Shown here: positions 4,160 to 24,587 of the stretch, piece after piece
Position numbering within the stretch: position 1 is the first letter of the stretch
How the letters are laid out: the number at the start of each line of letters is the position of its first letter
Assembly (NCBI GenBank): GCA_963745035.1
Contig: CAVUVW010000019.1
Span: forward strand, 32,001-96,000
Source: an uncultured delta proteobacterium
Lineage (GTDB): Bacteria; Desulfobacterota; Binatia; UBA9968
Length of the DNA: 64,000 nucleotides
Reading direction: 5' to 3'
Notes under the pieces: model-generated
Told to the model about the DNA's origin: nothing
Seen by the model: only the letters and a program-made list of their open reading frames with translations
Database searches by the model: none
Program-made: the position numbers and the translations under genes

Positions 4160-4194
4160 GGTTTCCTCCGCGAGCGAGATTTGCGATATTCGCA

Positions 4195-4263
4195 AGACCG
4201 CAGGGAAGGGAGCTTTATTCCGGCGCCTGAGTATCGGGAATAAAATCGTCGTCGCAGCGGTCT
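4195..4263. promoter_or_regulatory. Back-to-back ECF-type promoters GGAATAAA-N13-CGGTCT
   Basis: Same motif and spacing on minus (4195-4221, facing the YVTN gene) and plus (4237-4263, facing the sigma gene). Confidence 0.75.
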
Positions 4264-10451: not shown

Positions 10452-11073
10452 CTACCGCTCGACGCGCGCGACGCTGCGCTCCAACGGTAAGGGTTTTTCG
10501 AGAGACAGCACCAGAATCTTGCTGACCTTGCCTTTGCCGATGTTATTGCCGTGATCATCGTACTTGCTCTCTTCGCTGTCGAAGTCGTTATCGTTGGCCA
10601 CTGCGGCTGTAATTGTATGGCGTCTCGTCGATCTCTTTCAGGTTCGGCAGCCCGGTTACCGGCTTGCCGGACTGACCGACGATCGGTATGGCGTCGACGA
10701 TTCGGATAGCGCTATTCTCCAGTTTGACTCGGACGATCGCCGGATTGAACTCGGGCACCCAGAACGTGCGGCGGTTCCGGCCATCGACGCGGATCTGACC
10801 ATTGGGACCGCGGTCGGTGATCATCCAGAACTCGCCGGGCGCGTCGCTTGCGCCGCGCCACAGGTCGCTGCCCACGGAGCCCAATAGAACTTTGCGGTCG
10901 TTGCTCACGCTGCCGGCTATTTTCCCGTTTTGAAATTCCCGGATCGGCACCGACGGGAACTGGTAAACGGCTTCGACCTTGGCTTGCGCCTCGAGATCAG
11001 TGGGCATGGAGAGCGATGCCAAGGCGAGGCTCGCTAAAAGAACCAAGCCGGTTGTTGTTTTCGCAGAAGCCAC
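10452..11073 (-). pseudogene. Esterase-like-activity-of-phytase family gene with an internal deletion and frameshift
   Basis: The N-terminal part (signal peptide, ITDRGPNG) joins out of frame near 10605 to a C-terminal AVANDNDF...LERSVARVER* segment; the central part of the family is missing. Confidence 0.75.
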
Positions 11074-11121
11074 TTACACCTCCAAAGCTGGTTGATGGAT
11101 TAGAGAGGTTACGCGCAAATT

Positions 11122-11160
11122 TTTACCGGCGGATGAAGAAAAGTTTAAGCCATGATTACA
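11122..11160 (-). promoter_or_regulatory. Pho-box-like site upstream of the phytase-like gene
   Basis: Minus strand TGTAAT-n5-CTTAAA-n5-CTTCAT-n5-GGTAAA: four hexamers at 11-bp spacing. Confidence 0.55.
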
Positions 11161-11225
11161 AATGCCCCGGCAAAACCGGTATTCAGACTGGAAAGTCCGG
11201 GCTTTTGCCTCTATACCAGGGCAAT

Positions 11226-12845
11226 ATGTCGAACGCTTCTAAAGAGCGCCCGCCGCCGTCGCGCAAGAAGCTTGGCGTGGTTGCACTGCTTTACTTCATT
11301 CAAGGCGCGCCGGCGGCGATTTTGTGGGAAGTATTGCCGGTTTATTTTCGCATCAACGGGGTGTCGCTGCGCGCCATCGGCGGACTGCGGTTGCTCGAGC
11401 TGCCATACTCATTGAAGGTCTTCTGGTCGCCGCTGGTGCACCGCTTCGGCGACCGGCGTCTCTGGATCACGGCGTGCATGTTCGGCATCGCCGCGGTGCT
11501 CTTCGCCTTGCCGTTCGCCGATGTCGCGAGCGTCGGCGTGATCGTGCTCGTCTTGATTCTTGCGCTGACCACGCTGTCGGCGACTCAGGACATCGCCATC
11601 GATTCCTATTCCGTCGGCTTGATCAATCGCGACGAAGAAGGCGCGGCCAACGGCGTGCGCGCCTCGGCCTATCGCGTCGCGCTGGTGCTCACCGGCGGCG
11701 GGCTGGTGTTTCTCGCCGCGGTGCTGGCTTGGAATGCCTTGTTCATGCTCGCCGGCGGCGTTTTCGCGCTGCTCGGTATCGCCGCGCTCGCGATTCCGCG
11801 GCTGAATTTGCCGGAGGAGGCGCGCACGCACTGGTGGCAGGGCTTTGCCGGCTGGGCCGGCACCTGGCAGGTCGTGCCGTTGATCGCCTTCGTGCTCACT
11901 TACAAGCTCGGCGAATTCGCCATCGGGCCGATGGTCAAACCTTTCTGGGTCGATTACGGCAAGTCGATCTGGCCGGCGCAGGACGACTTGATGTTTCAGA
12001 TCGGCCTTTTTCCGACGACCTTCGGCATCATCCTCAGCATCGCCGGCGCGCTCGCCGGCGGCGCGTTCATCTCGCGTTACGGGATTTTTCACGGCGTGTG
12101 GTTCCTGGGCTTGCTGCAAGCGGTATCGAACATCAGCTATTCGTTGGTCGAGTGGCTCGATCTCGGCCGCTACGGCCTGTACGGCGCATCGATGTTCGAA
12201 TCGCTGAGCGGCGGCCTCGGCACGGCGGCGTTTCTCGCGTTTCTCATGAACGTTTGCGACAAAGAGCACGCCACCGTCCAGTATGCGTTTCTCTCGTCGG
12301 TCTTTTCTCTCACCGGCCGCTTGATCGGCGGCATCAGCGGATTGGGCGCGGAAAAATACGGCTACGGCGATTACTTCGCGATCACGTTCTTGCTCTCGAT
12401 GCCGGCTTATTTGCTCTTGCCCTGGGTGAAGCAGTGGATTCACGAGGAAGGAGACGGTGGGGAAGAGAGAAGAGGCCGAGAAGAGGAGACAAGAGAGAGA
12501 AGGAGACAAGGAGAAGGGGAGATGAGGAGACCGGGGCGGCGGCTACTTGGCGCTGGGCTTGGTCCTAGCGAGCTGCCGCAGCAGGCGGCGCCAGCTCTTG
12601 AGCTCGCGCTCGGGGCGCACCCACTTCGCGGCGCGCGCGCAGCGGCGCTTCAGGGCACGATAGAACTTCGGATCGGTTTCGGCGCGCCGCAGCAAAGCGC
12701 AAAGTTTTTTTGTGTCGCCGACTGGAAAATAGCCGGGGAAATCTTTTCCCAACGTTCCGATCAGGCCGGCGATGCGGCTCGCGATCACCGGCACGCCGCT
12801 GGCCAACGCTTCGGACAACACGTTGGAGCTGCCTTCCATCTTTGA
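11226..12845 (+). CDS. AmpG-like MFS transporter (true end probably near 12450-12525)
   Basis: LYFIQG, PYSLKVFWSPLV, SATQDIAIDSY, YKLGE, ATVQYAFLSS motifs. The ORF reads on through a purine-rich repeat and about 300 nt into senB on the opposite strand. Confidence 0.8.
   Translation: MSNASKERPPPSRKKLGVVALLYFIQGAPAAILWEVLPVYFRINGVSLRAIGGLRLLELPYSLKVFWSPLVHRFGDRRLWITACMFGIAAVLFALPFADVASVGVIVLVLILALTTLSATQDIAIDSYSVGLINRDEEGAANGVRASAYRVALVLTGGGLVFLAAVLAWNALFMLAGGVFALLGIAALAIPRLNLPEEARTHWWQGFAGWAGTWQVVPLIAFVLTYKLGEFAIGPMVKPFWVDYGKSIWPAQDDLMFQIGLFPTTFGIILSIAGALAGGAFISRYGIFHGVWFLGLLQAVSNISYSLVEWLDLGRYGLYGASMFESLSGGLGTAAFLAFLMNVCDKEHATVQYAFLSSVFSLTGRLIGGISGLGAEKYGYGDYFAITFLLSMPAYLLLPWVKQWIHEEGDGGEERRGREEETRERRRQGEGEMRRPGRRLLGAGLGPSELPQQAAPALELALGAHPLRGARAAALQGTIELRIGFGAPQQSAKFFCVADWKIAGEIFSQRSDQAGDAARDHRHAAGQRFGQHVGAAFHL
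12450..12532 (+). repeat. Purine-rich GGAGAC/AAGAGA low-complexity repeat
   Basis: Repeated ggagacaag/gagaag units between convergent genes. Confidence 0.6.
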
Positions 12846-13514
12846 TGTGATGCAAGCCAGTTGGCTCTGCGCCAGCAGCCGGCGGGTGCGCCGGTGCGAT
12901 AGCTGGCCGAGCGCGCGGTAGCGCGGGTTGCGCGCGGCTTCGGCTTGGATTTTGCGCGCGAGCTTTTCGTCCAAAGCGAGGCCGATATGAATGAGCTCGA
13001 TGCGTGAATCGGCCGGTAAACGGCGCGCGGCGAGCGGCGCGCGCAGCGGGTCTTTTTCCGCGCGCAGATGCGCGATCAGACATACTCGGAAAGTTTCGTG
13101 GCGCGCGGCAGGAGCGGCGCCGACGCCGTCGGCGGACTGATAAATCACTTGAGTTTTTCGATGAAACCGCCTCGGCAACTCTCGCAAAGCCATGCGTTGA
13201 AGCACGACCAGGCGGCTCGCAAGCTCAAGCGATTGTTTAGCTTGGGCGCTGCGCCGGATATCGCGGTAAAGGTCGGTTCCGGTGAGCACGACGATCAGCG
13301 GCAGGTCGGGATGCAGCTCGTGGAAGCGGCGGATCGACGCAGCGCTGCGGCGGGCGTGGAGCGCGATCAACACGTCGCAGCGCCGCTCATCGTAAGTTTG
13401 CGTAACTCGCACCCGATGACCGAGCTTTTTGAGCAGCGCGGACCAGCGCAGCGCGGTGATGCGGTTGCCGTTGTTGATGCGCAACGGCGCGGGGGTGACG
13501 AGCTGGATATTCAC
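12543..13514 (-). CDS. senB: Selenosugar synthase SenB-like glycosyltransferase (TIGR04348 type)
   Basis: LVTPA...NNGNRITALRW, IALHARRS, VLTGTDLYRD, HLRAEKDP, SKMEGSSNVLSEA, YPGYF-like motifs; lies directly downstream of an EgtB-like gene. Confidence 0.9.
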   Translation of the reverse strand: MNIQLVTPAPLRINNGNRITALRWSALLKKLGHRVRVTQTYDERRCDVLIALHARRSAASIRRFHELHPDLPLIVVLTGTDLYRDIRRSAQAKQSLELASRLVVLQRMALRELPRRFHRKTQVIYQSADGVGAAPAARHETFRVCLIAHLRAEKDPLRAPLAARRLPADSRIELIHIGLALDEKLARKIQAEAARNPRYRALGQLSHRRTRRLLAQSQLACITSKMEGSSNVLSEALASGVPVIASRIAGLIGTLGKDFPGYFPVGDTKKLCALLRRAETDPKFYRALKRRCARAAKWVRPERELKSWRRLLRQLARTKPSAK

Positions 13515-13523
13515 GTTGTTCGG

Positions 13524-14942
13524 CTAGCGGGCGCAGGTGCGAAAGCCTGCCCAAACATCGCGCCGGTCCGGCGTGTAGAAGTTTCTCCAGGTGTTGCGAA
13601 TCAGCAGCGATGAAGTCGCCCAACAGCCGCCGCGTAAAACTTTATGCGTGCCGAACCACGGTTGAGAGTATTCCTTGTAAGGATCCGCGCTAAAGTCCGG
13701 ATAAGGTTGAAATTCGCTTGCCGTCCATTCCCACACATTCCCGAGCATTTGGCGGCAGCCGAAAGCGCTATCGCCGGCGGCATGAGCGCCAACCTCGACC
13801 AGACCGCCGGCGCGCCAATCCAGATTGGCGCAGTCGGGAGTCGCGTTTTGGTCGCCCCAGGGGAAGAGCCGGCGTGAATCGTTGCGGGCGCCGGCGTCGG
13901 GATCAGACGAAGCGGCAACCTCCCATTCCGCTTCGGTGGGAAGCCTGCGGCCGGACCAATTACAATATGCCTCTGCTTCATACCAGCTCACGTGAACGAT
14001 GGGCAGGTTTTCATTGAGCGGAACATACTGGTCATAAACGCGTTGAAGCCAGCGGCCGTTTGCTGCGCGCTTCCAATAAATCGGATGGTCGAGGCTTTCG
14101 GTGAATTCCTGTATTACGGGGGCTTCGTTCATCCCGCGCTTGAAGAACTTGGCGAAGGATTTTTCCAACTGCGGCGAGCCGCCGGATTCGAGCCACTGCC
14201 AACCCTCGTCGCTCCAGAAGCGGCGCTCGCGGTAGCCGCCTGCTTCGACGAATTCGAGAAACTCGCCGTTGGTTACCGGCGCGCGGGCGATGCGAAAAGG
14301 TTTGAGCATGACCTCGTGTGCCCATTTCTCGTTGTCGAAGACGAAGGGGAAAGCCTTGGTCGCGCCGATCAAGTATTTGCCGCCGGGGATCTCGGCATCA
14401 CCGGAACGGCCACCGCCGTCGACGGCGACCGCCCGCCCGCCTTGGACGACCGGCGCCGGATAGCCGAGCGTCTGGCGCGTGTAGGCCAGCGCTTCGGCAT
14501 GCATGGCCTCATGAAAAGACGTGAGCCAATAAAAATAAAACTCGTCGGCCGAGAGTCGCTCGGATCGTTCGAGACGACCAATGCACCGCTCGATGACTTC
14601 ATTCATGTAGCTGAGGGTTTGCTCACGGCTGGGCAACAAGAGCTCCCAGCGCGTATCATGGGCCACGTCGGTTGAATTATAGATTCGGTCGCCGTCTTCG
14701 AGCAGCGGCTTTTCCTTGCGCAGGTGGCGCAGGGCCCAGAACTCCTGCGTCCACGCCACATGGCCGATTTCCCAGAGCGGCGGATTGACGATCGCCAGGC
14801 GCGGTCCGATCATTTGCCGGTCATCGAGATCTTGCACCAGCGCCAGTGTGCGCGCGCGAAACTCGCGCATGGCTGCGATCAATGGACGCACGCCCATGGT
14901 AGCGAAGGGATCGAAGGTTTCACTGGAAATCATCGTCGGCAA
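13524..14942 (-). CDS. senA: Selenoneine synthase SenA-like (EgtB family, DinB + FGE domains)
   Basis: IVNPPLWEIGHVAW, HEAMHAE iron motif, FVFDNEKWAH, RLPTEAEWE, GNVWEW, RNFYTPDRRDVWAGFRTC; adjacent to senB. The start may be ATG 14933. Confidence 0.88.
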   Translation of the reverse strand: MPTMISSETFDPFATMGVRPLIAAMREFRARTLALVQDLDDRQMIGPRLAIVNPPLWEIGHVAWTQEFWALRHLRKEKPLLEDGDRIYNSTDVAHDTRWELLLPSREQTLSYMNEVIERCIGRLERSERLSADEFYFYWLTSFHEAMHAEALAYTRQTLGYPAPVVQGGRAVAVDGGGRSGDAEIPGGKYLIGATKAFPFVFDNEKWAHEVMLKPFRIARAPVTNGEFLEFVEAGGYRERRFWSDEGWQWLESGGSPQLEKSFAKFFKRGMNEAPVIQEFTESLDHPIYWKRAANGRWLQRVYDQYVPLNENLPIVHVSWYEAEAYCNWSGRRLPTEAEWEVAASSDPDAGARNDSRRLFPWGDQNATPDCANLDWRAGGLVEVGAHAAGDSAFGCRQMLGNVWEWTASEFQPYPDFSADPYKEYSQPWFGTHKVLRGGCWATSSLLIRNTWRNFYTPDRRDVWAGFRTCAR

Positions 14943-14985
14943 TCTGAACCCTGCTCTCTGACCGAGCCCTCTTCTCCCAGGCTCG

Positions 14986-15828
14986 CTAGCTCTTCAAAAA
15001 CGGCACGCCCAGGCGCATCAGGTCGTCGAAGGCGTCCCAATGGACCATGTGCTTGCAGCCGTTCACGATGTGAAGATTGATCTGCGGTTGCTGTTTTTTG
15101 AGCAATTCGGCGCGTTCACCGGCGTGTGCGCGGTCTTCGCGGCCGAAGATCATCAACAGCGGCATCTTCAGTTCAGTGAGCCTATCATATAGCGGCTTGG
15201 ACGCTTTTGCGCCGCCCGCGGGGGCTTCGTGATTCTGGCGTTCCTGGTGAGCTTTGAAATTACGGCCGATCATGCGGCTGTGGCGCACGGCCACGTCCTC
15301 TTCGGAAATCAAGGAATGATTGAACGTGTCCGCCTGCAAGAGTTTTCGGGCATCCTCCAAGGTCGGCTCCTTTTGCGCCATCTCCTTGTCGACGCGCGCC
15401 TGTACCGCTTCGTACCTGCCGACTTGCTCTTCGGTCTGCAGCGGCAGCAGCGAGCCGGTGCCGAGGATCATGACGTGCGAATACCGGCCGGGGTCTTCCA
15501 ATGCGAGCTGAACCGCAAAGCCGCCGGAGCGTGAATGCGCGATCAGCGCGGTCTTGCCCAGGTCCGCGGCATCGATGAACTTCGGGATGGAATTGCGTTG
15601 CTGCGGCACGCTTTGCTTCTCGGGTATGTCGGAGAGGCCAAAACCGGGAAGGTCAAAGGCAGCCGCGCGAAATCCGGCCTTGGCAAAAGGACCGAGATTG
15701 CGCAGAAACACGTCCGCGGAACTCCCGAGAGACGCACCGTGCAGAAAAAGTACCGATGGTCCTGAGCCTGCTTCGATATACCGAAGCTTCAGTCCGTCGA
15801 CTTCGACGAATTTGTCTTGATAAGCCAT
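14986..15828 (-). CDS. Alpha/beta hydrolase
   Basis: LFLHG, DLPGFGLS, AHSRSGG nucleophile elbow, C-terminal KHMVHWD. Confidence 0.85.
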   Translation of the reverse strand: MAYQDKFVEVDGLKLRYIEAGSGPSVLFLHGASLGSSADVFLRNLGPFAKAGFRAAAFDLPGFGLSDIPEKQSVPQQRNSIPKFIDAADLGKTALIAHSRSGGFAVQLALEDPGRYSHVMILGTGSLLPLQTEEQVGRYEAVQARVDKEMAQKEPTLEDARKLLQADTFNHSLISEEDVAVRHSRMIGRNFKAHQERQNHEAPAGGAKASKPLYDRLTELKMPLLMIFGREDRAHAGERAELLKKQQPQINLHIVNGCKHMVHWDAFDDLMRLGVPFLKS

Positions 15829-16067
15829 TACGTCCTCCTTGTGTCCTCGTTGGGGTTAAGTTTCGTGCAGCCTTGCTGCGTCAAGCATTGCTCTTTCCGA
15901 CGGTTCGTCATTCCGCGCGCGTTTGAAGGAAGCTCATCACAAGCGCCTGGACCTCTCCCAAGAGAATTAACGTTAAGACCCGATACAATATTCGGGTTGG
16001 CGCCGATTACGTCCTCGCCGTTTTCATCATCATCTAACGCAAATCGAACGGCATCACAACGCGGCGT

Positions 16068-17207
16068 TCAGGAAACCACCCATTGGCGCAGCTTTTTCAG
16101 CCACGGCTCGAGCTCTTTTGCCCAAGCTTGGGTTCGATGGGCCTCGATGTACTCGATTGCGGCGCGCGTTTTCTGCCGCTCACGGGCCGCCGGCGCGCGC
16201 TTTTCCCGGGTTTTTTTCGCTTCGCGATCCGCTTCGCAGAAATGTCGAATCGCGCGCCAATGGGGCAAGGTCTCGGCGCCGAAACGCTCGCCGATAATCC
16301 TCGTCCAACTCTTTTCGGCACGGTAAGCGCGCGGCGTGCGCGCATAATCGAAACAAGTGGCCAAGGGAATCAGGCTCAAGCACGGCTGCAGCATCGGATT
16401 GCTCAGATAGCCGTGAACGTACTTGCACAGATTCGGATCGCGTCCTTGGAGCGGTCCGATGTGGAGCTCGTCGCGCATCGACAAATCGTTCACCGGGTAG
16501 TTGTCCCAGAGAAGCAGCGGGCGCTCGAGGATTCCCGCGATGCGCCGCGCGTGCGCGAGCGAAATGCGCTCACAGACCACCGTTGGTCCGGTCCAAAAGC
16601 ATGGGGCATCGTCGGGGAGGTGGCGCGCCAGCGTCTCCAGAAAGCGCGGCTCGAAGCGGCCGAAGACCCGTTCGAGCAGCGTATCCTCGCTGTAGCGAGA
16701 AGGGCAAATCCACCATCGAACATCTCTCCAGCTCGCCGGCTGTGCCGCGATGATGCGCGCGAGCCACAAGGCTTCCGCCGCGGCCAGGCTGTCGTTGAAA
16801 TGATTGCGGTCCATCGAGTGAATCAAACGCGAGGGGATGTCGTCGAAAAGCACGGCAAAAGTTTTTACGCCGGCATCGTAGAACGATTGCGCTTTTTGCA
16901 GCAGGATGCGAATCGGCTTCTCTTCCGAAAACCGCAGTCCTTCGCCTGGATGAAAGCCGTAGACGAATTCGATCCGCCTTTTCTGCGCGCTTTGAATGAG
17001 TTGCAGCAGTTTTTTCCATGCCGGCCGCGGGTAGGGACGGCGCCAGAGCCGGCGATGGTACGGATCGTCCTTGGGGGCGTAAAGATACGTGTTCATGCCA
17101 CGCGCGGCGCCCAGCTCGAAGAGCGCTCGGCGCTGCGCCATCGACCAGGGCGCGCCGAAGAATCCTTCGACCACGCCGCGATATTCGAATGCGCCCGGCG
17201 TTCTCAT
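16068..17207 (-). CDS. GH84 beta-N-acetylglucosaminidase (O-GlcNAcase-like), no signal peptide
   Basis: GVVEGFFG, YLYAPKDDPYHR, FAVLFDDI catalytic Asp-Asp, FWTG, LWDNYPVND, NPM motifs. Confidence 0.9.
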   Translation of the reverse strand: MRTPGAFEYRGVVEGFFGAPWSMAQRRALFELGAARGMNTYLYAPKDDPYHRRLWRRPYPRPAWKKLLQLIQSAQKRRIEFVYGFHPGEGLRFSEEKPIRILLQKAQSFYDAGVKTFAVLFDDIPSRLIHSMDRNHFNDSLAAAEALWLARIIAAQPASWRDVRWWICPSRYSEDTLLERVFGRFEPRFLETLARHLPDDAPCFWTGPTVVCERISLAHARRIAGILERPLLLWDNYPVNDLSMRDELHIGPLQGRDPNLCKYVHGYLSNPMLQPCLSLIPLATCFDYARTPRAYRAEKSWTRIIGERFGAETLPHWRAIRHFCEADREAKKTREKRAPAARERQKTRAAIEYIEAHRTQAWAKELEPWLKKLRQWVVS

Positions 17208-17295
17208 TGAAATTCGAATCTCGCATGCCGCGCTTGTTGGAACAAGCTTGCTTGCCAAGGCCGATGTCATTGCGTAGGATCGAGCGAACATTTTT

Positions 17296-18099
17296 ATGAT
17301 GCGAGAGACGATCGTCATGATTTCCGTGTTCGGCGTCTGGCTCATGGCGGCGCTGAGCGCCGGCGCGCAAGTCAAAGAGCCGGATGACATGGTGCGCGTT
17401 CCCGGCGGAGCATTCTCGATGGGACGCAATGACGGTCCGGCGGACGAGCGGCCGCAGCACACCGTCCGTCTCGCGGAGTTTTTCATCGATCGAACCAAAG
17501 TCAGCAACGCCGCTTTTGCGATTTTTCTCAATGTCGTTGGCGCGCGCGGCCCGCGCGGCGAAAAGTACTACGACATCGACGACAACGACGCGCGGGTGCG
17601 CCGGCGCGACGGCAAGTGGCAGGCCGATGCCGGTCACGAGCGCCACCCGGTGGTCGAGGCGTCATGGGACGGCGCGCGCGCTTATTGCGCGTGGATCGGC
17701 AAGCGCTTGCCGACGGAAGCGGAATGGGAGCAGGCGGCGCGCGGCGCTGACGGGCGGAAGTATCCATGGGGCAATGAGGCGCCCGATAAATCGCGGGCGC
17801 ACTTCGGCGCCGGTTGGAACGATTTGCGCCCGGTGGGAAGCCTTCCGAAAGGCGCGTCGCCGTACGGCGCGCTCGATATGGCCGGCAACGGTTGGGAATG
17901 GGTGAGCAGTCTTTACCGGCCCTATCCCTACGATGCGCACGACGGACGCGAGGATCCGGCGGCGGATCAGCCGCGCGGCACGAGAGGCGGCGGGCATGAT
18001 TCGCCCGCCGAGGATTTGACCGTGACGCAGCGCGGCCGGCATGTGTCGCGCAACCCGCGCGGCGGGCACCACAACATCAGCTTTCGCTGCGCCCGCTGA
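17296..18099 (+). CDS. Secreted FGE-sulfatase (SUMF1) domain protein
   Basis: Signal peptide; FSMG, ERPQH, KRLPTEAEWEQAARG, YPWG, DMAGNGWEW, ISFRCAR. Confidence 0.9.
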   Translation: MMRETIVMISVFGVWLMAALSAGAQVKEPDDMVRVPGGAFSMGRNDGPADERPQHTVRLAEFFIDRTKVSNAAFAIFLNVVGARGPRGEKYYDIDDNDARVRRRDGKWQADAGHERHPVVEASWDGARAYCAWIGKRLPTEAEWEQAARGADGRKYPWGNEAPDKSRAHFGAGWNDLRPVGSLPKGASPYGALDMAGNGWEWVSSLYRPYPYDAHDGREDPAADQPRGTRGGGHDSPAEDLTVTQRGRHVSRNPRGGHHNISFRCAR

Positions 18100-18115
18100 C
18101 TAGCTTTTCGGTTTC

Positions 18116-18760
18116 ATGTCGCTTTATCTTTTACTGCAAGGCGTGCTGATGGGGTTGGTCGTCGCCGTGCCGGTGGGGCCGCTCGGATTGCTCTGCATCA
18201 ATCGCGCATTGATGATGGGGCCGACCCACGGGCTGTTCTCCGGTCTCGGCGTCGCCACCGCGGATGCGCTCGCCGCCGGCATCGCCGCTCTCGGCATTAC
18301 CCTGATATCGAGCTTCCTGAGCGCGCACCAAGTGCTTCTGCGCTTGATCGGCGGCGCGTTTCTCTGCTATCTCGGCTACGCGATCTACACTGCCGAGCCG
18401 GCTGCGCAGACGGCGATCAAGAACATCAACGGCTTGCTCGGCTGTTATGTGACGACTTTATTTCTGACCTTCTCCAATCCGGTGACGATTCTCTCCTTCG
18501 TCGCCATCTACGCCGGCTGGCATGTGCCGAGCCTGGACGGGCACTATGCGGCGGCGGCGACGTTGACCGCCGGCGTATTCACGGGTTCGGCGCTGTGGTG
18601 GGTCGGCTTGTTCCTCGGCCTGACGACATTTCGCGAGCGCTTCAACCTGCGTTTTCTTTTCTGGGTCCATCGGGCCTCGGGCGTGATCATCGCCGTGTTC
18701 GGCGTCATCGTGCTCTTGAGTCTCTCGCCTTGGGGCCAGGCGTTGGGGTTGAAACTTTGA
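18116..18760 (+). CDS. LysE-family exporter
   Basis: AVPVGP, GLGVATAD, TFSNPVTILSF, GSALWW motifs. Confidence 0.9.
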   Translation: MSLYLLLQGVLMGLVVAVPVGPLGLLCINRALMMGPTHGLFSGLGVATADALAAGIAALGITLISSFLSAHQVLLRLIGGAFLCYLGYAIYTAEPAAQTAIKNINGLLGCYVTTLFLTFSNPVTILSFVAIYAGWHVPSLDGHYAAAATLTAGVFTGSALWWVGLFLGLTTFRERFNLRFLFWVHRASGVIIAVFGVIVLLSLSPWGQALGLKL

Positions 18761-19734
18761 GCGCGCGGCCCGACTCACTGGTTCACGGCGATCGCGGCAG
18801 GGGCATTCCCGCCGGTCTCAATCTCTGTCTGGCCGGTTTCTACGTCGCGCTCAATGTGTATCAATTCATTTTCCTGCCGCTGCAGCTTTTGCCGGTAAGC
18901 CTGGCCTGGGGCTGGACCTTGCTTCCGGCGGCGCTCCTGACCAACCCGTACTGGAGCCTGATTCACGAGGCGATTCACGACCTGTTCCATCCCAACCGGA
19001 ACGTCAATGGATTTTTCGGGCGGTTGTTGTCGATCCTGTTTGGCGCGCCGTTTCGGATTCTCCGCACCAGCCATCTGGTCCACCATAAGCTCAATCGCCT
19101 GCCCGTCGAGGGGACGGAATACTACGACCGCGCTACCGGCACCAAGGCGCGCGCCGCGCCGGGATATTATTCTCAGATTTTTTTCGGGCTCTATCTCGCC
19201 GAGGCGCTGAGCCCGCTCTATTTTCTTTTGCCCAGGAGCGCGCTGGTGCGGCTGCAGAAGCGGCTGCTGAAGCCGGGCAGCGTGAGCGCCATCCTGATGG
19301 AGAATTGGCTCGGCGCCGCGGCGCTGCGCGAGATTCGCTTCGACGGCTGCCTGGCGATTTTGTGGTTGGCGCTTGCGCTAGCGTGCTACGGCGAACATTG
19401 GCCGCTGCTGGCGGCGCTCTGGCTCGCGCGGGCGTTTCTGATTTCCTTTCTCGACAACGTCTATCACTACGCCACCCCGGTGGGCGATCTGTTCTACGCG
19501 CGCAATCTCTCGCTGCCCGGTGCGTGCGCGAAGCTGCTGCTCCATTTCAACCTGCACGGCGTGCACCACGTCAACCCGGCGATCCCGTGGCGCGATCTGC
19601 CGCGCGCCTTCGACGCGCAGGCGGGAAGATACGAGGGCGATTATTTTGCCGCCGCGCTGCGCCAACTGCGCGGCCCGATCGCGCTCCAGGATCTGCCCGA
19701 AGGCTCGCCTTCGGTTCGCGTGCGGCCGTTCTAG
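18757..19734 (+). CDS. Membrane fatty-acid desaturase family protein
   Basis: His boxes HEAIH, HLVHH, HGVHH..PAIPW; the TTG start overlaps the LysE stop codon. Confidence 0.85.
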   Translation: MSARPDSLVHGDRGRGIPAGLNLCLAGFYVALNVYQFIFLPLQLLPVSLAWGWTLLPAALLTNPYWSLIHEAIHDLFHPNRNVNGFFGRLLSILFGAPFRILRTSHLVHHKLNRLPVEGTEYYDRATGTKARAAPGYYSQIFFGLYLAEALSPLYFLLPRSALVRLQKRLLKPGSVSAILMENWLGAAALREIRFDGCLAILWLALALACYGEHWPLLAALWLARAFLISFLDNVYHYATPVGDLFYARNLSLPGACAKLLLHFNLHGVHHVNPAIPWRDLPRAFDAQAGRYEGDYFAAALRQLRGPIALQDLPEGSPSVRVRPF

Positions 19735-19747
19735 GCCAGCAGGCAGA

Positions 19748-19783
19748 CTCGGTTCAAATCGTTCAAGCCGTTCAAAACGTTCC
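19748..19783 (+). repeat. 9-nt tandem repeat (GTTCAAnnC), second copy at 54371-54415
   Basis: ctcggttcaaatcgttcaagccgttcaaaacgttcc; both copies begin ctcggttcaa. Confidence 0.7.
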
Positions 19784-19794
19784 GCGGCAGTGAA

Positions 19795-20832
19795 TCATCC
19801 GTCAGGATTGCTTTTTTTAAAGAGCAGGACGGAAAACCACCGGTTGGCGTCGGTCAGGTGGCGCACCGGCGCGAGGCCGAAAAAACCGAGTTGCTCCTGC
19901 AAGCGCTCGGGGTCGAATTTGCGGCTGATCTCCACGAGAATTTTTTCGTCCCGCTGCCAGTGAAAGGCGCGATGCAGCTCGGCGAAGCGGACTTCGTGGG
20001 TCTCGTTGGCGACGGCGTACATTTCGATCTGCTGCCAGTCGCCGTTGTAGCGCGAGTGGTAGCGCATCTTGGCGAGATCGAAATTGCTTCCGAGCAGGCG
20101 ATTGATGTTGGCAAAGACGTTGAGAATGAATTCGGCGGTGACGCCGCGGCTGTCGTTGTAGGCGGCCTCCAGGATTTCCGCCGGCTTGATCCGGTCGACG
20201 CCGAGCAGGAGATAGTCGCGCGGTCCCATGGCCGCCGACAAGGCGCGGAAGAAGCGCGGCAAGTCGCTGTGGTTGAAGTTGCCGATGGTGCTGCCGAGAA
20301 ATACGAACAAGGTCGGCAGGTCCGGATCGATGGCTGCGATTGCTTCTTCGTAACGCGCATGCATGCCGTGAAATTCGATGCGCGGGAAGGCCGCGCGAAC
20401 CGCGTCGCGCGAGGCGAGCAGACCGGCGCGGCTCACGTCGATGGGCGTAAAAATGCTCGGACCGCGCTGGCGCTCCTGCTCGGTCAGAAGATGAACGGTC
20501 TTCTTGCTGAAGCCCGCGCCCAATTCGGCGACACAGCGCACCGGCGCGGCACCGATGATCTCGGCGGCATGCGCTTCGAGAAGCGCGTCTTCGGTGCGCG
20601 TCAGATAGTACTCCGGCAGCGCGCAGATCTGCTCGAAAAGCTCCGAGCCGCGCTGATCGTAGAGGTGGTAGGCTTCGAGCCAGCGCGGCTGGTCCCAGAG
20701 CGTGGACAGAATCGACAGGGACGGCACCGAGTCCATCTCCGCGCCGCGGCGCGCCCAGATGCCGGACTGGGGGGCGGTCCAATTGATGCGCTCGCCCGGG
20801 GCAAAGATCGATGTCGCGGCCGGTTGTGTCAT
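19795..20832 (-). CDS. egtD: L-histidine N-alpha-methyltransferase (EgtD family)
   Basis: LYDQRGSELFEQICALPEYYLTRTE, ELGAG, FLGSTIGNF, AYNDSRGVTAEF, IEM, EISRKF. Confidence 0.9.
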   Translation of the reverse strand: MTQPAATSIFAPGERINWTAPQSGIWARRGAEMDSVPSLSILSTLWDQPRWLEAYHLYDQRGSELFEQICALPEYYLTRTEDALLEAHAAEIIGAAPVRCVAELGAGFSKKTVHLLTEQERQRGPSIFTPIDVSRAGLLASRDAVRAAFPRIEFHGMHARYEEAIAAIDPDLPTLFVFLGSTIGNFNHSDLPRFFRALSAAMGPRDYLLLGVDRIKPAEILEAAYNDSRGVTAEFILNVFANINRLLGSNFDLAKMRYHSRYNGDWQQIEMYAVANETHEVRFAELHRAFHWQRDEKILVEISRKFDPERLQEQLGFFGLAPVRHLTDANRWFSVLLFKKSNPDG

Positions 20833-20892
20833 CGGTAGAGAGACTATAAAAGAAAAGGGCCCGGCTTTCGACCCGCGCCGGAAATATTTCCC

Positions 20893-21660
20893 ATGAGCAA
20901 CGACGAGATCGCCGTCGAGTTTCGCGACGTGAGCTTCATTGTCCCCGGCGGCAAGAAGCTCCTCGCTCATCTCGATTTGACGGTACGCCGCGGCGAGACT
21001 CTGGTCTTGCTCGGGCGCAGCGGCTCGGGCAAGACCACGACGATGAAGTTGATCAACCGCCTGATCGATCCGACGGAAGGCGAAGTTCGGATCGAGGGCC
21101 GGGCCAGCGTGGAGTGGGACCCGATCCGGCTGCGCCGGCGCATCGGCTACGTGATCCAGGAAATCGGTCTGTTTCCGCACTTGACAGTGGCGGAGAATAT
21201 CGGCGTCGTGCCGCGGCTCGAAGGCTGGCCGCCGGAGCGCATCCGCGAGCGCGCGCGGGCGCTGCTCCAGATGGTCGGTCTCGATGCCGACCGCTTCGCC
21301 GAACGCATGCCGCGGGAATTGTCCGGCGGCCAGCGCCAGCGCGTCGGCGTGGCGCGCGCGCTCGCGGCGGACCCGCCGTTTATTTTGCTCGACGAGCCCT
21401 TCGGCGCCCTCGATCCGATCACGCGCCGCGAGATTCAACGCGAGTTCCAAACCCTCCAGCGCGAGCTGGGCAAGACGATGATCTTCGTCACCCATGACAT
21501 CGCCGAGGCGTTTCTGCTCGCCAACCGGATCGCGCTGCTCCAGGACGGCGCAATGGTTCTGCTCGGCCCGCCGGAAGATTTGCTGCGCTCGGCGCATCCC
21601 GAAGCGCGCGCCTTCGCCGAGGGTTTTCGCGGCGCGCAAAATTCTCCGAGCGGCGCATGA
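20893..21660 (+). CDS. Betaine/ergothioneine-type ABC transporter ATPase (OpuCA/EgtV-like)
   Basis: GRSGSGKTT, LRRRIGYVIQEIGLFPH, LSGGQRQR, DEPFGALDPITR. Confidence 0.92.
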   Translation: MSNDEIAVEFRDVSFIVPGGKKLLAHLDLTVRRGETLVLLGRSGSGKTTTMKLINRLIDPTEGEVRIEGRASVEWDPIRLRRRIGYVIQEIGLFPHLTVAENIGVVPRLEGWPPERIRERARALLQMVGLDADRFAERMPRELSGGQRQRVGVARALAADPPFILLDEPFGALDPITRREIQREFQTLQRELGKTMIFVTHDIAEAFLLANRIALLQDGAMVLLGPPEDLLRSAHPEARAFAEGFRGAQNSPSGA

Positions 21661-23234
21661 CGATCGGCGAATTTCTCGTGCGCCACGGTGGCGAGCTCCT
21701 GGGCCTCACTTTCGAACATTTGCTGCTCGTGCTGGTGTCGACGGGTCTGGCGATCCTCATCGGCGTTCCCCTCGGCATCGTGCTCACCCGCCGGCCTGCG
21801 CTCAGCAAGCCGGTGCTCGGCTTCGCCAACATCATGCAAACCGTGCCGAGCCTGGCGCTGTTCGGCTTTTTGATCCCGCTCAATATTTATTTGTTCAACG
21901 TAAAGATTCTCGGCGGCATCGGCGCGCGCACGGCGATCGTCGCGCTGGTGCTCTACGCGCTGCTGCCGATCATTCGCAATACGTTCATTGGCATCAGCTC
22001 GGTCGATCCGGCGATTCGCGACGCCGGACGCGGCATGGGCATGACCGATCGCCAACTGCTGTTTCAGGTGGAGCTGCCGCTCGCGCTCGGCGTGATCATC
22101 GCCGGAGTGCGCGTCGCGACGGTAATTTGCGTCGGCACGGCGACCATCGCGGCGGCGATCGACGCCGGGGGGCTGGGCCGCTACATTTTTCGCGGTCTGC
22201 GGGCCAACGACAATCTGCTCATCCTCGCCGGCGCACTGCCCGCGGCGCTGATCGCCCTGGGCGCGGACCTCGGTCTGGGCTACGTCGAGCGCACCATGCA
22301 ATTCGCCGGCGCGCGCAAGAGCCGACCAAAAACTTTTCTGTGGCCGAGCCTTGCCGGCGCCCTGGCGCTGCTCGCCGCGGGTTATTTCTTTATCGGTCAC
22401 GGCGGCAGCCGGATTGCCGTCGGCTCCAAGGATTTCAGCGAGCAGGTGATCCTCGGAGAGCTGCTCGCCCAGGCGATCGAAGCGGAGACCGGCTTGGCGG
22501 TGGAGCGGCGCTTCGACCTCGGCGGAAATTTGGCCCATGAGGCGCTCGTCGCCGGAGAAATCGATCTCTATCCGGAATACACCGGAACCGCGCTGCTGGC
22601 GATCTTGAAAAGCCGGCCGCTCAAGGATCCGCAGGAGGTTTACCGCGTGGTGGCGCAAGAGTACGCCAAACGCTTCGATCTCGTCTGGACCGAGCCGTTC
22701 GGGTTCAACAACACCTTCGCGATTTTGGTGCGCGGCGACGATGCGCGCCGGCTCAATCTAAAAACCATCAGCGACGCGGCGCGCGTCTCGGCGCAGTGGC
22801 GCGCCGGCTTCGGCCAGGATTTCATGTCGCGGGCCGACGGCTATCCGGGCTTTGCGAAGACCTACGGCTTTCACTTTCAGGAAATCCGCGAGATGGACCT
22901 TTCGCTCACCTATCGCGCGCTCGCGGAAAAGCAAGTCGATCTGATCGCGGGCAATTCCACCGACGGTTTGATCGCGCGCTACGGTCTGGTGCAGTTGGAA
23001 GACGACCGCAAGTATTTCCCGCCCTACGACGCCGTGCCGGTGGCGCGCCGGGCAACGCTGGAAAAATATCCGAAAACGCGGGCGGTGTTGCAACGGCTCG
23101 GCGGCATCCTCACGGTCGAGGAGATGCGCAAGCTCAACTACGCCGTCGACGGCGAGAAGCGCCAGCCCAAGGACGTGGCCCAGCAGTTCTTGCTGGAGAA
23201 GCGCATCCTCGACGGCTCCGGCGCGGCGCGCTGA
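21657..23234 (+). CDS. Fused permease/substrate-binding protein of a betaine/ergothioneine-type ABC importer (EgtU/OpuBC-like)
   Basis: QTVPSLAL, LLPIIRNT permease part fused to a GSKDFSEQ, YPEYTGT, FNNTFA, FPPYDAVP binding domain. Confidence 0.9.
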   Translation: MTIGEFLVRHGGELLGLTFEHLLLVLVSTGLAILIGVPLGIVLTRRPALSKPVLGFANIMQTVPSLALFGFLIPLNIYLFNVKILGGIGARTAIVALVLYALLPIIRNTFIGISSVDPAIRDAGRGMGMTDRQLLFQVELPLALGVIIAGVRVATVICVGTATIAAAIDAGGLGRYIFRGLRANDNLLILAGALPAALIALGADLGLGYVERTMQFAGARKSRPKTFLWPSLAGALALLAAGYFFIGHGGSRIAVGSKDFSEQVILGELLAQAIEAETGLAVERRFDLGGNLAHEALVAGEIDLYPEYTGTALLAILKSRPLKDPQEVYRVVAQEYAKRFDLVWTEPFGFNNTFAILVRGDDARRLNLKTISDAARVSAQWRAGFGQDFMSRADGYPGFAKTYGFHFQEIREMDLSLTYRALAEKQVDLIAGNSTDGLIARYGLVQLEDDRKYFPPYDAVPVARRATLEKYPKTRAVLQRLGGILTVEEMRKLNYAVDGEKRQPKDVAQQFLLEKRILDGSGAAR

Positions 23235-23276: not shown

Positions 23277-24587
23277 ATGGGTTGGCTGCACAGATTGCCG
23301 ATCACTCGCACAGGATCTTTTTTCTTGTTTCACCAACTCACCGGACTCTTTTACGGCTGGCGCATGATAGCGGCGGCGGGCGCGCTGCGCGTGCTCGGCG
23401 CGGGACTTCATAGCTTCGGCTTCACGGTGTTTTTCCTGCCGCTCAGCCAGGACCTGAACCTCAATCGAACCTCGACGTCTTTGGCTTTTTCCCTCGCGCG
23501 CGCGGAGGGCGCCATCGAGGGTCCGATCGTCGGGCATCTGCTCGATCGCTACGGCCCGAAACCGGTGATGATCGCCGCGGTGTTGCTGATGGGCGTGGGT
23601 TATTTGCTGCTCTCGCAGGTGAATAGCTACGCGGCCTTTCTGTTTGTCTACTTGGGCGTGATCTCGTTGGCGCACGCAGGCGGATTCATGCACGCGCCAA
23701 TGGTGCTGATCAACACCTGGTTCATCCGCCATCGCGCGCGCGCCATTACCATTAGCAGCGCGGCGTTCGGGATGGGCGGCGTCTTGGTCGCGCCGATTCT
23801 CAGCGTGATCGTGCAGACGTGGGGATGGCGCTGGGGTGCGGCGATCGCCGGCATGCTTTTTCTGCTGCTCGGTATCCCGCTGGCGCTGACCATTCGGCGC
23901 TCGCCTGAGAGTATGGGGTTGGTGCCCGATGGCGACGTCGTACCGGATGTCGAGACCGGCACGGAATCGCCTGCTCCCGCGAATCGTCCCGAAGTCGACG
24001 TCACGGTCGCGGAAGCGCTGCGCTCGTTTGCGTTCTGGGGATCGGTGGTCGCTGCCGGTATTCGCAACGGCTGCTATCACGCGATCTCGGTGCATTTCAT
24101 CCCGCTGATGGTCTGGAAGGGGTTGAGCCAGGCGGAGGCGGCATTTTTATTGGGCGCTTACGCATTTCTCGGCATGGCGACCACCTTGCTCATCGGCTGG
24201 TCTGCCGACCGCATGAACAAACCGCGGCTTACCGCATGGATTCTTTTTATAGCGGCGGCCGCGATGCTCCTACCGATCTTCGGCAATTCATTTCTCGCGC
24301 TGGCGCTGTTCACGATTTTTTTTGCCGCGGTGGAAACCACTTTTCCGCTCGGCTGGGCGATCGTCGGCGACTTGTTCGGGCGCAAGCACTACGCCAAAAT
24401 CCGCGGCTACATGACTCTGTTTTACACGTGGGGCGGAGTCATCGGGCCGGTGCTTGCCGGCGCGATCTTCGACCGCTGGGCAACCTACGAGCCGCTGTTA
24501 TGGTCGCTCATCGGTGTATTCATTCTCGCGGGGGGTTTCTTCGCGGGCTTGAGCCGTACCTGGAAAAGAGCGACGGGCCGGATTTGA
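23277..24587 (+). CDS. MFS transporter
   Basis: About 12 TM segments; FYGW, LLDRYGPK, DLFGRKHYAKIRG. Confidence 0.88.
   Translation: MGWLHRLPITRTGSFFLFHQLTGLFYGWRMIAAAGALRVLGAGLHSFGFTVFFLPLSQDLNLNRTSTSLAFSLARAEGAIEGPIVGHLLDRYGPKPVMIAAVLLMGVGYLLLSQVNSYAAFLFVYLGVISLAHAGGFMHAPMVLINTWFIRHRARAITISSAAFGMGGVLVAPILSVIVQTWGWRWGAAIAGMLFLLLGIPLALTIRRSPESMGLVPDGDVVPDVETGTESPAPANRPEVDVTVAEALRSFAFWGSVVAAGIRNGCYHAISVHFIPLMVWKGLSQAEAAFLLGAYAFLGMATTLLIGWSADRMNKPRLTAWILFIAAAAMLLPIFGNSFLALALFTIFFAAVETTFPLGWAIVGDLFGRKHYAKIRGYMTLFYTWGGVIGPVLAGAIFDRWATYEPLLWSLIGVFILAGGFFAGLSRTWKRATGRI

Follow-up and report, generated by a model that had tools for sequence, protein, structure and literature searches.

We analysed a 64,000-nucleotide stretch of DNA from an uncultured delta proteobacterium of the class Binatia (contig CAVUVW010000019.1, positions 32,001 to 96,000; the whole stretch is called the window below). 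Its region at ~11.2-23.2 kb carries senB and senA, the genes of a selenosugar synthase and a selenoneine synthase, together with egtD, a gene of glycoside hydrolase family 84 (GH84) and genes for transporters and for membrane and exported proteins (Table 1). In our interpretation, which we hold with a probability of about 0.55, this region is one conserved selenoneine supercluster of a Binatia type, organised unlike the published senABC clusters, and its GH84 protein is an enzyme of the pathway that acts on N-acetylglucosamine (GlcNAc) carrying selenium. An earlier reading of the window, made from its letters without database searches (the sequence-only reading), had proposed an expanded sen locus in which senB and senA are adjacent, egtD and a divergent ABC importer lie about 5 kb away, and an alpha/beta hydrolase, a GH84 enzyme, an FGE-domain protein, a LysE protein and a desaturase are encoded in between. 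All these genes are present and were confirmed by profile matches, SenB and SenA both scoring over the cut-offs of their equivalog models, and the accessory genes are conserved beside the sen genes in relatives, as seen from three anchors.

In the proposed pathway, EgtD would make hercynine, SelD would supply selenophosphate in trans, SenB would make 1-seleno-GlcNAc (SeGlcNAc) from UDP-GlcNAc and selenophosphate, and SenA would join hercynine and SeGlcNAc with the use of O2. The GH84 enzyme would remove or recycle the GlcNAc that carries selenium, as suggested by its conserved linkage and its co-occurrence with the sen genes. With less weight, judging from protein family and conserved position, the LysE protein may be the export arm and the EgtUV-like ABC transporter the uptake arm for a betaine product or precursor. 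Similarly, the exported FGE-fold protein, the membrane di-iron enzyme and the alpha/beta hydrolase could have tailoring or handling functions.

Linkage of the GH84 gene to senB in relatives

Neighbouring genes were counted around three independent anchors, namely senB, the GH84 gene and the desaturase gene. For the senB anchor, 20 kb around the gene were taken from 20 of the 51 SenB-positive genomes, which were chosen for their long contigs and represented three families. The GH84 anchor was based on one-genome-per-species contigs and on the best 80 of 138 relatives, with senA and senB counted where at least 3 kb of downstream sequence was available. For the desaturase anchor, metagenome contigs and the best 80 of 182 relatives were used, and counts are given over evaluable loci. 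The presence of a neighbour was scored by tblastn with identity thresholds of our own choice; the related genomes are not independent of one another, and contig ends limit many of the counts.

Synteny in relatives had been set beforehand as the test on which the proposal of an expanded locus should fall, and the linkage was found to be conserved. The GH84 gene lies beside senB in 19 of the 20 senB-anchored loci, across three families (the exception is L051), and senA is present in 17 of the 20. Three loci of family f2 contain the senB-GH84 pair and a divergent FGE-fold gene without senA, which is located elsewhere in those genomes. When the GH84 gene itself was used as the anchor, senB was detected in 59 and senA in 55 of the 65 evaluable loci.

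The same association was visible at the level of whole genomes. Of 61 genomes belonging to the same order, 51 have a SenB that scores over its cut-off, and SenB and GH84 were together present or together absent in 56 of the 61: both were found in 51 genomes (3 of them with an incomplete or broken SenB), while 5 have neither, 3 have SenB alone and 2 have GH84 alone. All tallies over 61 genomes include two unpublished ones (G005 and G035, both with SenB, GH84 and SelD), without which they are out of 59. The linkage persists where the proteins share 50-65% identity, and it has outlasted several rearrangements. As separate observations, senB appears to be broken in G025 (G025:C44:2711-3644; two pieces, with a TAA inside the match), where the GH84 gene on the same contig is intact, and G043 (family f2, completeness 95) has SenA over the cut-off and an EgtD match, with neither SenB nor GH84 found.

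The GH84 proteins were further compared in a quick maximum-likelihood tree of 81 sequences with support values from the Shimodaira-Hasegawa-like approximate likelihood ratio test (SH-aLRT), in which the branch leading to the window protein is long. The sequences of family f3 make up a clade of their own, where senA-senB are the only partners next to the GH84 gene, and loci with the accessory module are scattered across the three other large subclades. The GH84 proteins labelled as Burkholderiales or Betaproteobacteria (L110, L112, L115 and L117) nest inside the Binatia-type clade (SH-aLRT 98), which suggests either a transfer between phyla or mis-binning.

All five Burkholderiales-type genomes with this GH84 clade (5/5) also carry SenA over the cut-off elsewhere in the genome, and in one of them, a Burkholderiales metagenome-assembled genome (MAG), senB lies 2.3 kb from the GH84 gene in a quite different neighbourhood. 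The order of genes in this locus (L110:4702-9140) is senB, an ArsR-rhodanese gene, a fatty-acid-hydroxylase-family gene, a rhodanese gene, a SemiSWEET-like gene and the GH84 gene. It thus parallels the window in that genes for a di-iron membrane enzyme and for a small transporter stand with senB and GH84; in this locus they belong to different families (FA_hydroxylase and SemiSWEET-like). The recurrence of such a pair hints at a conserved, still unnamed function.

The GH84 protein

The open reading frame of the GH84 gene, of 487 residues, is over-long in comparison to its relatives of ~380 residues, and the start used in Table 1 was set by alignment. The Asp-Asp pair (FDDIPS) and the WDNYPVND motif are invariant in 13 orthologues. 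The predicted model has a mean predicted local distance difference test score (pLDDT) of 88.8, and its best fold match in Foldseek was the T. terrenum O-GlcNAcase (OGA) 5diy (TMq 0.83, 32% identity). The full length of the protein, i.e., the barrel and the C-terminal helical bundle, superposes on this cytoplasmic enzyme, to which the sequence match is 233 bits. The minus-1 site for GlcNAc is complete, the protein is without a signal peptide and without extra domains, and its gene is single-copy in the genome of the window (G000). As judged from the sequence and the model, the enzyme is predicted to be catalytically intact and OGA-like.

The T. terrenum enzyme (5DIY), C. perfringens NagJ and B. 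thetaiotaomicron BT_4395 share with the window protein the TIM barrel, the C-terminal helical bundle, the Asp-Asp pair and the GlcNAc-binding motifs. In contrast to these bacterial OGAs, the window protein has only 376 residues, with ~32% identity to 5DIY, and members of its clade lie beside senB and senA; its proposed substrate would be Se-linked GlcNAc or a by-product rather than a glycoprotein. We also considered the recycling of muropeptides by AmpG and GH84, with GH84 standing in for NagZ, and rejected it: a GH3 gene of the NagZ type is present elsewhere in the genome, so that GH84 is not needed for this purpose, and GH84 tracks SenB and not AmpG.

A cytoplasmic and intact GH84 that has been inherited, lost and moved with senB is best explained as acting on beta-linked Se-GlcNAc. 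In the in vitro work of bioRxiv 10.1101/2022.04.13.486033, the selenoxide eliminates spontaneously, and the reduced hercynyl-SeGlcNAc selenoether accumulates when a reductant is present. This selenoether is a reduced shunt product and cannot eliminate spontaneously. We lean, tentatively and at somewhat less than even odds, towards the selenoether as the preferred substrate of GH84, which would cleave it to selenoneine and GlcNAc and could in this way rescue a dead-end product in the reducing cell.

SenA, SenB and EgtD

In a search of the whole genome, SenA scored 490.3 bits against NF041186 (cut-off 420). Its closest solved relative is OvsA (359.7 bits for the OvsA-YNF variant 8ux5 and 349.9 bits for the wild type), and V. 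paradoxus SenA gave 258 bits. The alignment to 8ux5 indicated that the H...HxxxH triad and the catalytic tyrosine (equivalent to OvsA Tyr398 and SenA Tyr363) are kept and that the hercynine positions (SenA Y366, N395 and F396) are occupied by Tyr, Asn and Phe in the window enzyme; the roles of catalytic residues in SenA and OvsA were taken from PMC11237966 and PMC11030361. As described in PMC11030361, three residues set the substrate, Met401/Gln430/Ala431 in OvsA and Tyr/Asn/Phe in SenA, and OvsA mutated to YNF becomes a selenoneine synthase. The motif, the triad and the catalytic tyrosine, together with the higher score of the YNF variant, thus indicate that the window enzyme is of the SenA type, uses hercynine and belongs to a branch near OvsA. 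A product of the selenoneine type is expected from it. The best match in the Protein Data Bank (PDB) had raised the possibility of a histidine-using synthase of the OvsA type, which was ruled out by the Y/N/F motif.

The OvsA (ovoselenol) cluster of Halomonas utahensis (PDB 8U41, 8U42 and 8UX5) shares with the window a synthase that falls in the same length class and that likewise relies on a selenosugar as donor. It differs in that the window SenA has the Tyr/Asn/Phe motif of hercynine use and 2'-selenylation and not Met401/Gln430/Ala431 (PMC11030361); moreover, the window locus contains egtD, and no OvsM-type methyltransferase was seen in it.

SenB matched V. paradoxus SenB (8jjq/8rz3) with 196 bits. 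The donor- and phosphate-binding residues of the latter are described in PMC11237966, and in our alignment the counterparts of G19, T23, Q131, R155, K158, L209, H211 and T214 are kept. In place of R22 there is an Ile, directly preceded by an Arg, and His235, which makes a main-chain contact, is replaced by Asn, with the preceding Glu-Gly pair kept.

EgtD lies at the line of its cut-off, with 288.5, 290.8 or 291.1 bits against 290.9 (TIGR03438). It is single-copy in the genome, and its orthologues, 59-81% identical, occupy the same position in relatives. No canonical EgtB scored over the cut-off in the genome of the window. Outside the window, 190 kb off on the same contig (G000:C19:239632-240868), there is a second gene resembling sulfoxide/selenoxide synthases; its C-terminal domain scores ~181 bits equally against the SenA, EgtB and OvoA models, under all cut-offs, and the match is in two pieces in different frames.

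Supply of selenophosphate

The sequence-only reading had assumed the established scheme of SenC, SenB and SenA acting with EgtD. For the SenB, SenA and EgtD steps of this scheme there are candidate genes in the locus; the SenC step is not encoded, since no senC/selD match was found within the window, and the proximity of selD to senA and senB by which published clusters were recognised is therefore missing here. The only SelD of the genome is encoded on another contig (G000:C17:318816-319742) and contains a single in-frame TGA close to the start, which makes a selenocysteine enzyme probable. Among the 61 genomes of the same order, SelD was found in 57, always in single copy and never listed near senB, and the in-frame TGA is present in every SelD match that covers the start of the gene (55 of the 57). 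There was likewise no SelD match in the 80 GH84-anchored or the 80 desaturase-anchored loci. In the absence of senC from the locus, selenophosphate must come from the single, unlinked housekeeping SelD.

This has a consequence for earlier censuses. In that of bioRxiv 10.1101/2022.04.13.486033, selD was required within 5 kb, and 827 of 2,353 TIGR04348 genes qualified; clusters of the window type would have been left out by this demand.

The senABC clusters of V. paradoxus and Amycolatopsis (Kayrouz et al., bioRxiv 10.1101/2022.04.13.486033) share with the window the adjacent SenA and SenB equivalogs and the expected product, selenoneine. The co-location of egtD, which the same preprint reports for a minor share of the sen clusters, was thus already known and is shared by the window. 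The window locus differs in that it is without senC/selD, its genome having a separate SelD of the selenocysteine type, and in that no selenate-transporter gene was identified in it by profile scans. It differs also by what is added: a GH84 gene in the conserved core, the alpha/beta hydrolase, the FGE-fold/LysE/desaturase operon, the EgtUV-like importer and the AmpG-like permease.

A 2026 survey of 5 kb around thio/seleno-imidazole synthase (NHISS) genes (PMC13674229) lists egtD, senB, senC and parts of OpuB-type ABC transporters, and in its Table 1 ABC genes of this type are among the commonest neighbours. The neighbour list in its main text contains no GH84, LysE, desaturase or FGE-fold family, although its supplementary tables may hold such genes. 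Among the papers searched, we found no link between selenoneine and GH84, or between a selenosugar or SenB and an N-acetylglucosaminidase, and nothing of relevance on selenoneine in combination with a glycoside hydrolase or a selenoether, with the same reservation that supplementary figures or tables might show such genes, and no publication tying Binatia/Binatota to selenoneine and ergothioneine was found.

Conservation of the accessory genes

The FGE-fold, LysE, desaturase, egtD and ABC transporter genes, referred to here as the accessory module, were examined from all three anchors. Around the desaturase gene, LysE was present in 57 of 57 evaluable loci, the FGE-fold gene in 26 of 28, GH84 in 25 of 28, senA in 15 of 16, senB in 10 of 16, egtD in 44 of 50 and the fused ABC permease/binding gene in 26 of 31. 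The desaturase subfamily is seen essentially always in this locus context. Its gene was found in five of five same-genus genomes and was not found in five genomes of families f2 and f3 that lack the module. Around GH84, among the 50 loci with at least 6.5 kb of upstream sequence, we counted the FGE-fold gene in 17, LysE in 18, the desaturase in 13, egtD in 15 and the ABC genes in 12-13.

The whole accessory set occurs in 5 of the 20 senB-anchored loci, all from the genus of the window. The 11 family-f3 loci that we fetched showed no such module next to their sen genes, and in that family egtD lies 17-23 kb from senB. In split clusters, GH84 has remained on the FGE-fold/LysE/desaturase side (L063, as well as G013, in which GH84 and the desaturase are on contig C282). 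We thus regard the GH84 gene as a hinge that connects the sen genes to the accessory module. The sequence-only reading had left room for the intervening genes being unrelated neighbours; the conserved linkage and the co-occurrence speak against this, and, on the comparisons made here, these genes would not be chance neighbours of the sen genes.

Points against the interpretation and alternative explanations

Several points weigh against GH84 as a pathway enzyme of a single supercluster. SenB occurs without this GH84 in three genomes (G020, G023 and G031, with completeness of 67, 97 and 93). GH84 is tied more tightly to senB than to senA, both in the f2 genomes and in L110, and since this linkage persists without senA, a substrate made by SenB alone fits as well as the selenoether. 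The loci all come from related, mostly Binatia-like uncultured lineages, so that synteny may partly be inheritance. About two thirds of the GH84-anchored loci do not have the module next to GH84 (present in 12-18 of 50), and the binding domain of the importer is nearer to choline/betaine-type sensors derived from OpuBC (223 bits) than to EgtUC chains (161-166 bits). O-GlcNAcase does cleave thioglycosides with good leaving groups. Thioglycosides in general, though, are resistant to hydrolases (PMC6637381). Finally, the organisms with published senABC clusters make selenoneine, and the synthesis was reconstituted in vitro, without GH84, which is therefore not chemically required (bioRxiv 10.1101/2022.04.13.486033).

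The first alternative, which we regard as unlikely, is that GH84 hydrolyses free SeGlcNAc or its diselenide to GlcNAc and selenide, either for control of the pool or for the release of selenium from selenosugars imported by AmpG, with SeGlcNAc as a storage or carrier form. This would fit the presence of GH84 by senB where senA is elsewhere (family f2 and L110). The AmpG family, by the name of TIGR00901, carries GlcNAc-containing muropeptides, the permease gene abuts senB in 24 of 51 loci, and it was not found in two same-genus genomes that are also without SenB and GH84. However, SeGlcNAc made and hydrolysed in one compartment would be a futile cycle unless regulated, and every tested genome with this GH84 also has SenA, so that a SenA-dependent substrate is possible throughout. 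The AmpG-like gene, in turn, is convergent with senB and not co-transcribed with it, and it is absent from the f2 and f3 loci.

An extension of the selenoether interpretation goes further, and we consider it to have only a minor chance of being correct. Here selenoneine would not be finished spontaneously: in the reducing cytoplasm the product of SenA would be trapped as the selenoether, and GH84 would be a true Se-glycosidase that deprotects it. The LysE protein, the FGE-fold protein, the di-iron enzyme and the importer would form a circuit across the envelope, in which selenoneine is exported, used or oxidised outside the cytoplasm, and taken back up. The periplasmic cysteine/cystine shuttle of E. 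coli is an analogue of such a circuit. If this was true, GlcNAc would be a removable carrier for selenium.

Alternatively, GH84 could salvage the sugar left by the elimination of the selenoxide, which we infer to be 2-acetamidoglucal, by hydrating it to GlcNAc; this would remove a potential inhibitor of hexosaminidases and win back carbon and nitrogen. N-acetyl glycals can be bound or hydrated by hexosaminidases. The complete minus-1 site of GH84 and its Asp-Asp pair for chemistry assisted by the 2-acetamido group are compatible with this role, and the internal elimination of the selenoxide, the mechanism published in bioRxiv 10.1101/2022.04.13.486033, must by our deduction leave an unsaturated sugar. 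Nonetheless, this preprint does not name the sugar by-product and has no mention of glucal, no literature on acetamidoglucal was found among the papers searched, and salvage gives little reason for a tight and ancient linkage to senB. We consider this explanation improbable.

We give equally little credence to the view that only senB, senA and egtD are functionally related and that GH84, the hydrolase, the FGE-fold protein, LysE, the desaturase and the transporters are neighbours by common descent within one bacterial class. It draws on nearly all compared loci being from related uncultured lineages (the nearest relatives of GH84 are labelled Candidatus Binatia bacterium), on the frequent absence of the module from GH84-anchored loci noted above, and on the failure of the promoter/terminator scan and of Rfam to reveal a shared regulatory element. 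Yet the linkage outlasts the divergence of the proteins and rearrangements such as a mobile hydrolase, a gene order unlike that of same-genus relatives and split clusters; GH84 and SenB are gained and lost together across genomes; the same GH84 clade lies by senB in the Burkholderiales MAG with quite different other neighbours; and the desaturase subfamily hardly ever leaves this context.

That the locus makes a sulfur compound or a mixed product by a thiosugar route to ergothioneine is very improbable, since the lack of senC in the locus and of a canonical EgtB over the cut-off, the single egtD and the weak acceptance of thioglucose by SenA in vitro (bioRxiv 10.1101/2022.04.13.486033) stand against SelD in 57 of 61 genomes, the equivalog scores of SenA and SenB and, in the same preprint, the stalling of SenA with a thiosugar at the sulfoxide, without ergothioneine.

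Organisation of the locus

The genome of the window comprises 28 contigs with 7.4 Mb in total, at a completeness of 92.6 and a contamination of 5.8, and the G+C content of the window is ~60%. The genes of the locus are listed in Table 1. The AmpG-family permease gene is convergent with senB, the FGE-fold gene and the GH84 gene are divergent and 97 bp apart, and egtD is convergent with the desaturase gene and divergent from that of the ProV-like ATPase. The ATPase gene and the permease/binding fusion overlap by 4 nt.

Table 1. Genes of the putative selenoneine locus, with predicted products, positions in the window and best profile matches
Gene or product	Position	Strand	Profile match
AmpG-family MFS permease (candidate locus member)	~11226-12845	+	TIGR00901, 242.8 bits (cut-off 350)
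senB, selenosugar synthase	12543-13514	-	TIGR04348, 404.5 bits (cut-off 300)
senA, selenoneine (selenoxide) synthase	13524-14942	-	NF041186, 490.8 bits (cut-off 420)
Alpha/beta-fold hydrolase	14986-15828	-	PF00561, 66.6 bits
Compact cytoplasmic GH84 beta-N-acetylglucosaminidase, 376 aa	16068-17198	-	PF07555, 272.7 bits
Exported FGE-fold protein	17296-18099	+	PF03781, 175.8 bits
LysE/RhtB-family exporter	18116-18760	+	PF01810, 67.4 bits (over Pfam cut-off)
Membrane His-box (di-iron) desaturase/hydroxylase-family enzyme	18757-19734	+	PF00487, 72.2 bits
egtD, histidine N-alpha-trimethyltransferase	19795-20736	-	TIGR03438, 288.5-291.1 bits (cut-off 290.9)
ProV/OpuBA-type ABC ATPase, 255 aa	20893-21660	+	TIGR01186, 276.9 bits (cut-off 326.6)
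Fused ABC permease + OsmF/OpuBC-like quaternary-amine binding domain, 525 aa	21657-23234	+	profile matches

We also considered the genes on both sides as members of the locus. No link was seen for those of the flanks (PhoX, a cupredoxin/beta-propeller protein, other ABC parts, an NMT1-like binding protein and an M20 peptidase), and the MFS gene at 23277-24587 was rejected as no orthologue of it was found in the 20 senB-anchored loci (E<=1e-10 and E<=1e-15). The PhoX alkaline phosphatase (550.7 bits) is encoded upstream at 8277-10202 and the beta-propeller protein, which has a C-terminal cupredoxin domain, at 2891-4195 of the window.

The scan of the locus for promoters and terminators stayed at chance level (4 against 2.5 expected, and 16 against 15 in shuffles), and a comparison of window positions 10-26 kb with Rfam gave nothing at E<=0.1. 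Contigs from three RNA libraries (two studies) cover parts of most genes of the locus, mostly 90-99% alike; these are Logan contigs in which DNA is possibly present, they show neither transcription nor operon structure, and the parts left uncovered are uninformative. DNA nearly identical to window 12543-22500 (at least half of the sampled words) was seen in 11 runs, which are labelled as rhizosphere, soil or winery metagenome, or unlabelled.

Properties of the accessory proteins

The FGE-fold protein had been described in the sequence-only reading as secreted, in line with which a hydrophobic, signal-peptide-like stretch is present in all 9 N-termini compared, with starts placed 25-40 residues in for three over-long open reading frames. 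The protein belongs to the same PF03781 fold family as FGE/SUMF1 and the C-terminal domain of EgtB/SenA, and its best solved matches are bacterial FGEs (95 bits). It has a signal peptide and lacks the FGE cysteines, the iron-binding DinB domain and the substrate motifs of SenA (Tyr-x-x-Tyr and Asn-Phe). In the alignment to S. coelicolor FGE 6muj, both catalytic, copper-binding cysteines are gapped or replaced, and the only invariant Cys among 8 orthologues is at another position. The predicted model, from 8 sequences, had a pLDDT of 52.4. By these sequence features, the protein would be neither an FGE nor a selenoxide synthase.

The LysE protein scored 55.8 bits against TIGR00949, under the cut-off, and far under the cut-offs of all NCBIfam subfamily models. 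Its gene is directly upstream of the desaturase gene in all loci in which both could be evaluated (57/57), and the TTG start of the latter overlaps the LysE stop by 4 nt (TTGA), which suggests translational coupling. Three invariant His boxes (HEAIHD..H, HLxHH and HGxHH) are present in 6 orthologues of the desaturase. No solved structure related to the desaturase was found, and for this protein and the FGE-fold protein the Protein Atlas gave generic family names only.

The best NCBIfam matches of the alpha/beta hydrolase were HsaD/BphD (~100 bits, far under the cut-offs), and an orthologue with at least 40% identity was present in 25 of the 80 GH84-anchored loci. No other protein of the locus is as well conserved, same-genus copies sharing 85-97% identity as compared to 55-80% for its neighbours, and as judged from these identities it appears to be under unusually strong constraint. 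Its position shifts: in the window the gene lies between senA and GH84, in same-genus relatives beyond GH84, and in other lineages a hydrolase type of 45-51% identity is found between GH84 and senA.

Orthologues of the AmpG-like permease are 71-88% identical and abut senB in part of the relatives. Among the GH84-anchored loci that extend 5 kb or more downstream, 24 of 51 contain the gene, which is absent from the f2 and f3 loci; at E<=1e-20 it was not found in four of five genomes tested, three of which are also without SenB and GH84. The frame in the window (10848-12845, + strand) overruns the stop of the 417-residue orthologues by ~130 low-complexity residues and runs across the 3' end of senB. 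This overrun is due either to a lost stop codon or to an assembly error.

The ABC fusion combines a ChoW/ProW-like permease with an OsmF-like binding domain (135 bits). The EgtUV importers of S. pneumoniae and H. pylori have the same build, i.e., a separate ATPase and a permease fused to a quaternary-amine binding domain of cluster F-III, and in S. pneumoniae EgtU the ergothioneine residues are K242, G244, F293, T296, N339, Y341, R379, Y419 and Y443 (bioRxiv 10.1101/2022.05.02.490363). In comparison to EgtUV, the window domain scores higher on scaffolds of the choline/betaine type, and its candidate ligands are selenoneine, ergothioneine, hercynine and a plain betaine.

Implications

The synthesis of selenoneine described so far consists of three enzymes and spontaneous chemistry. 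The window and ~140 related loci represent a large group of soil bacteria with a clustered GH84 gene, an unclustered selenium-activating gene and a constant complement of genes for export, import and membrane or periplasmic proteins, and censuses which require selD nearby miss this whole class of putative producers. The locus points to pathway steps that have not been described, and it provides testable candidates for the removal or recycling of the selenium-bearing sugar in vivo, for the transport of selenoneine across membranes, and for its further tailoring.

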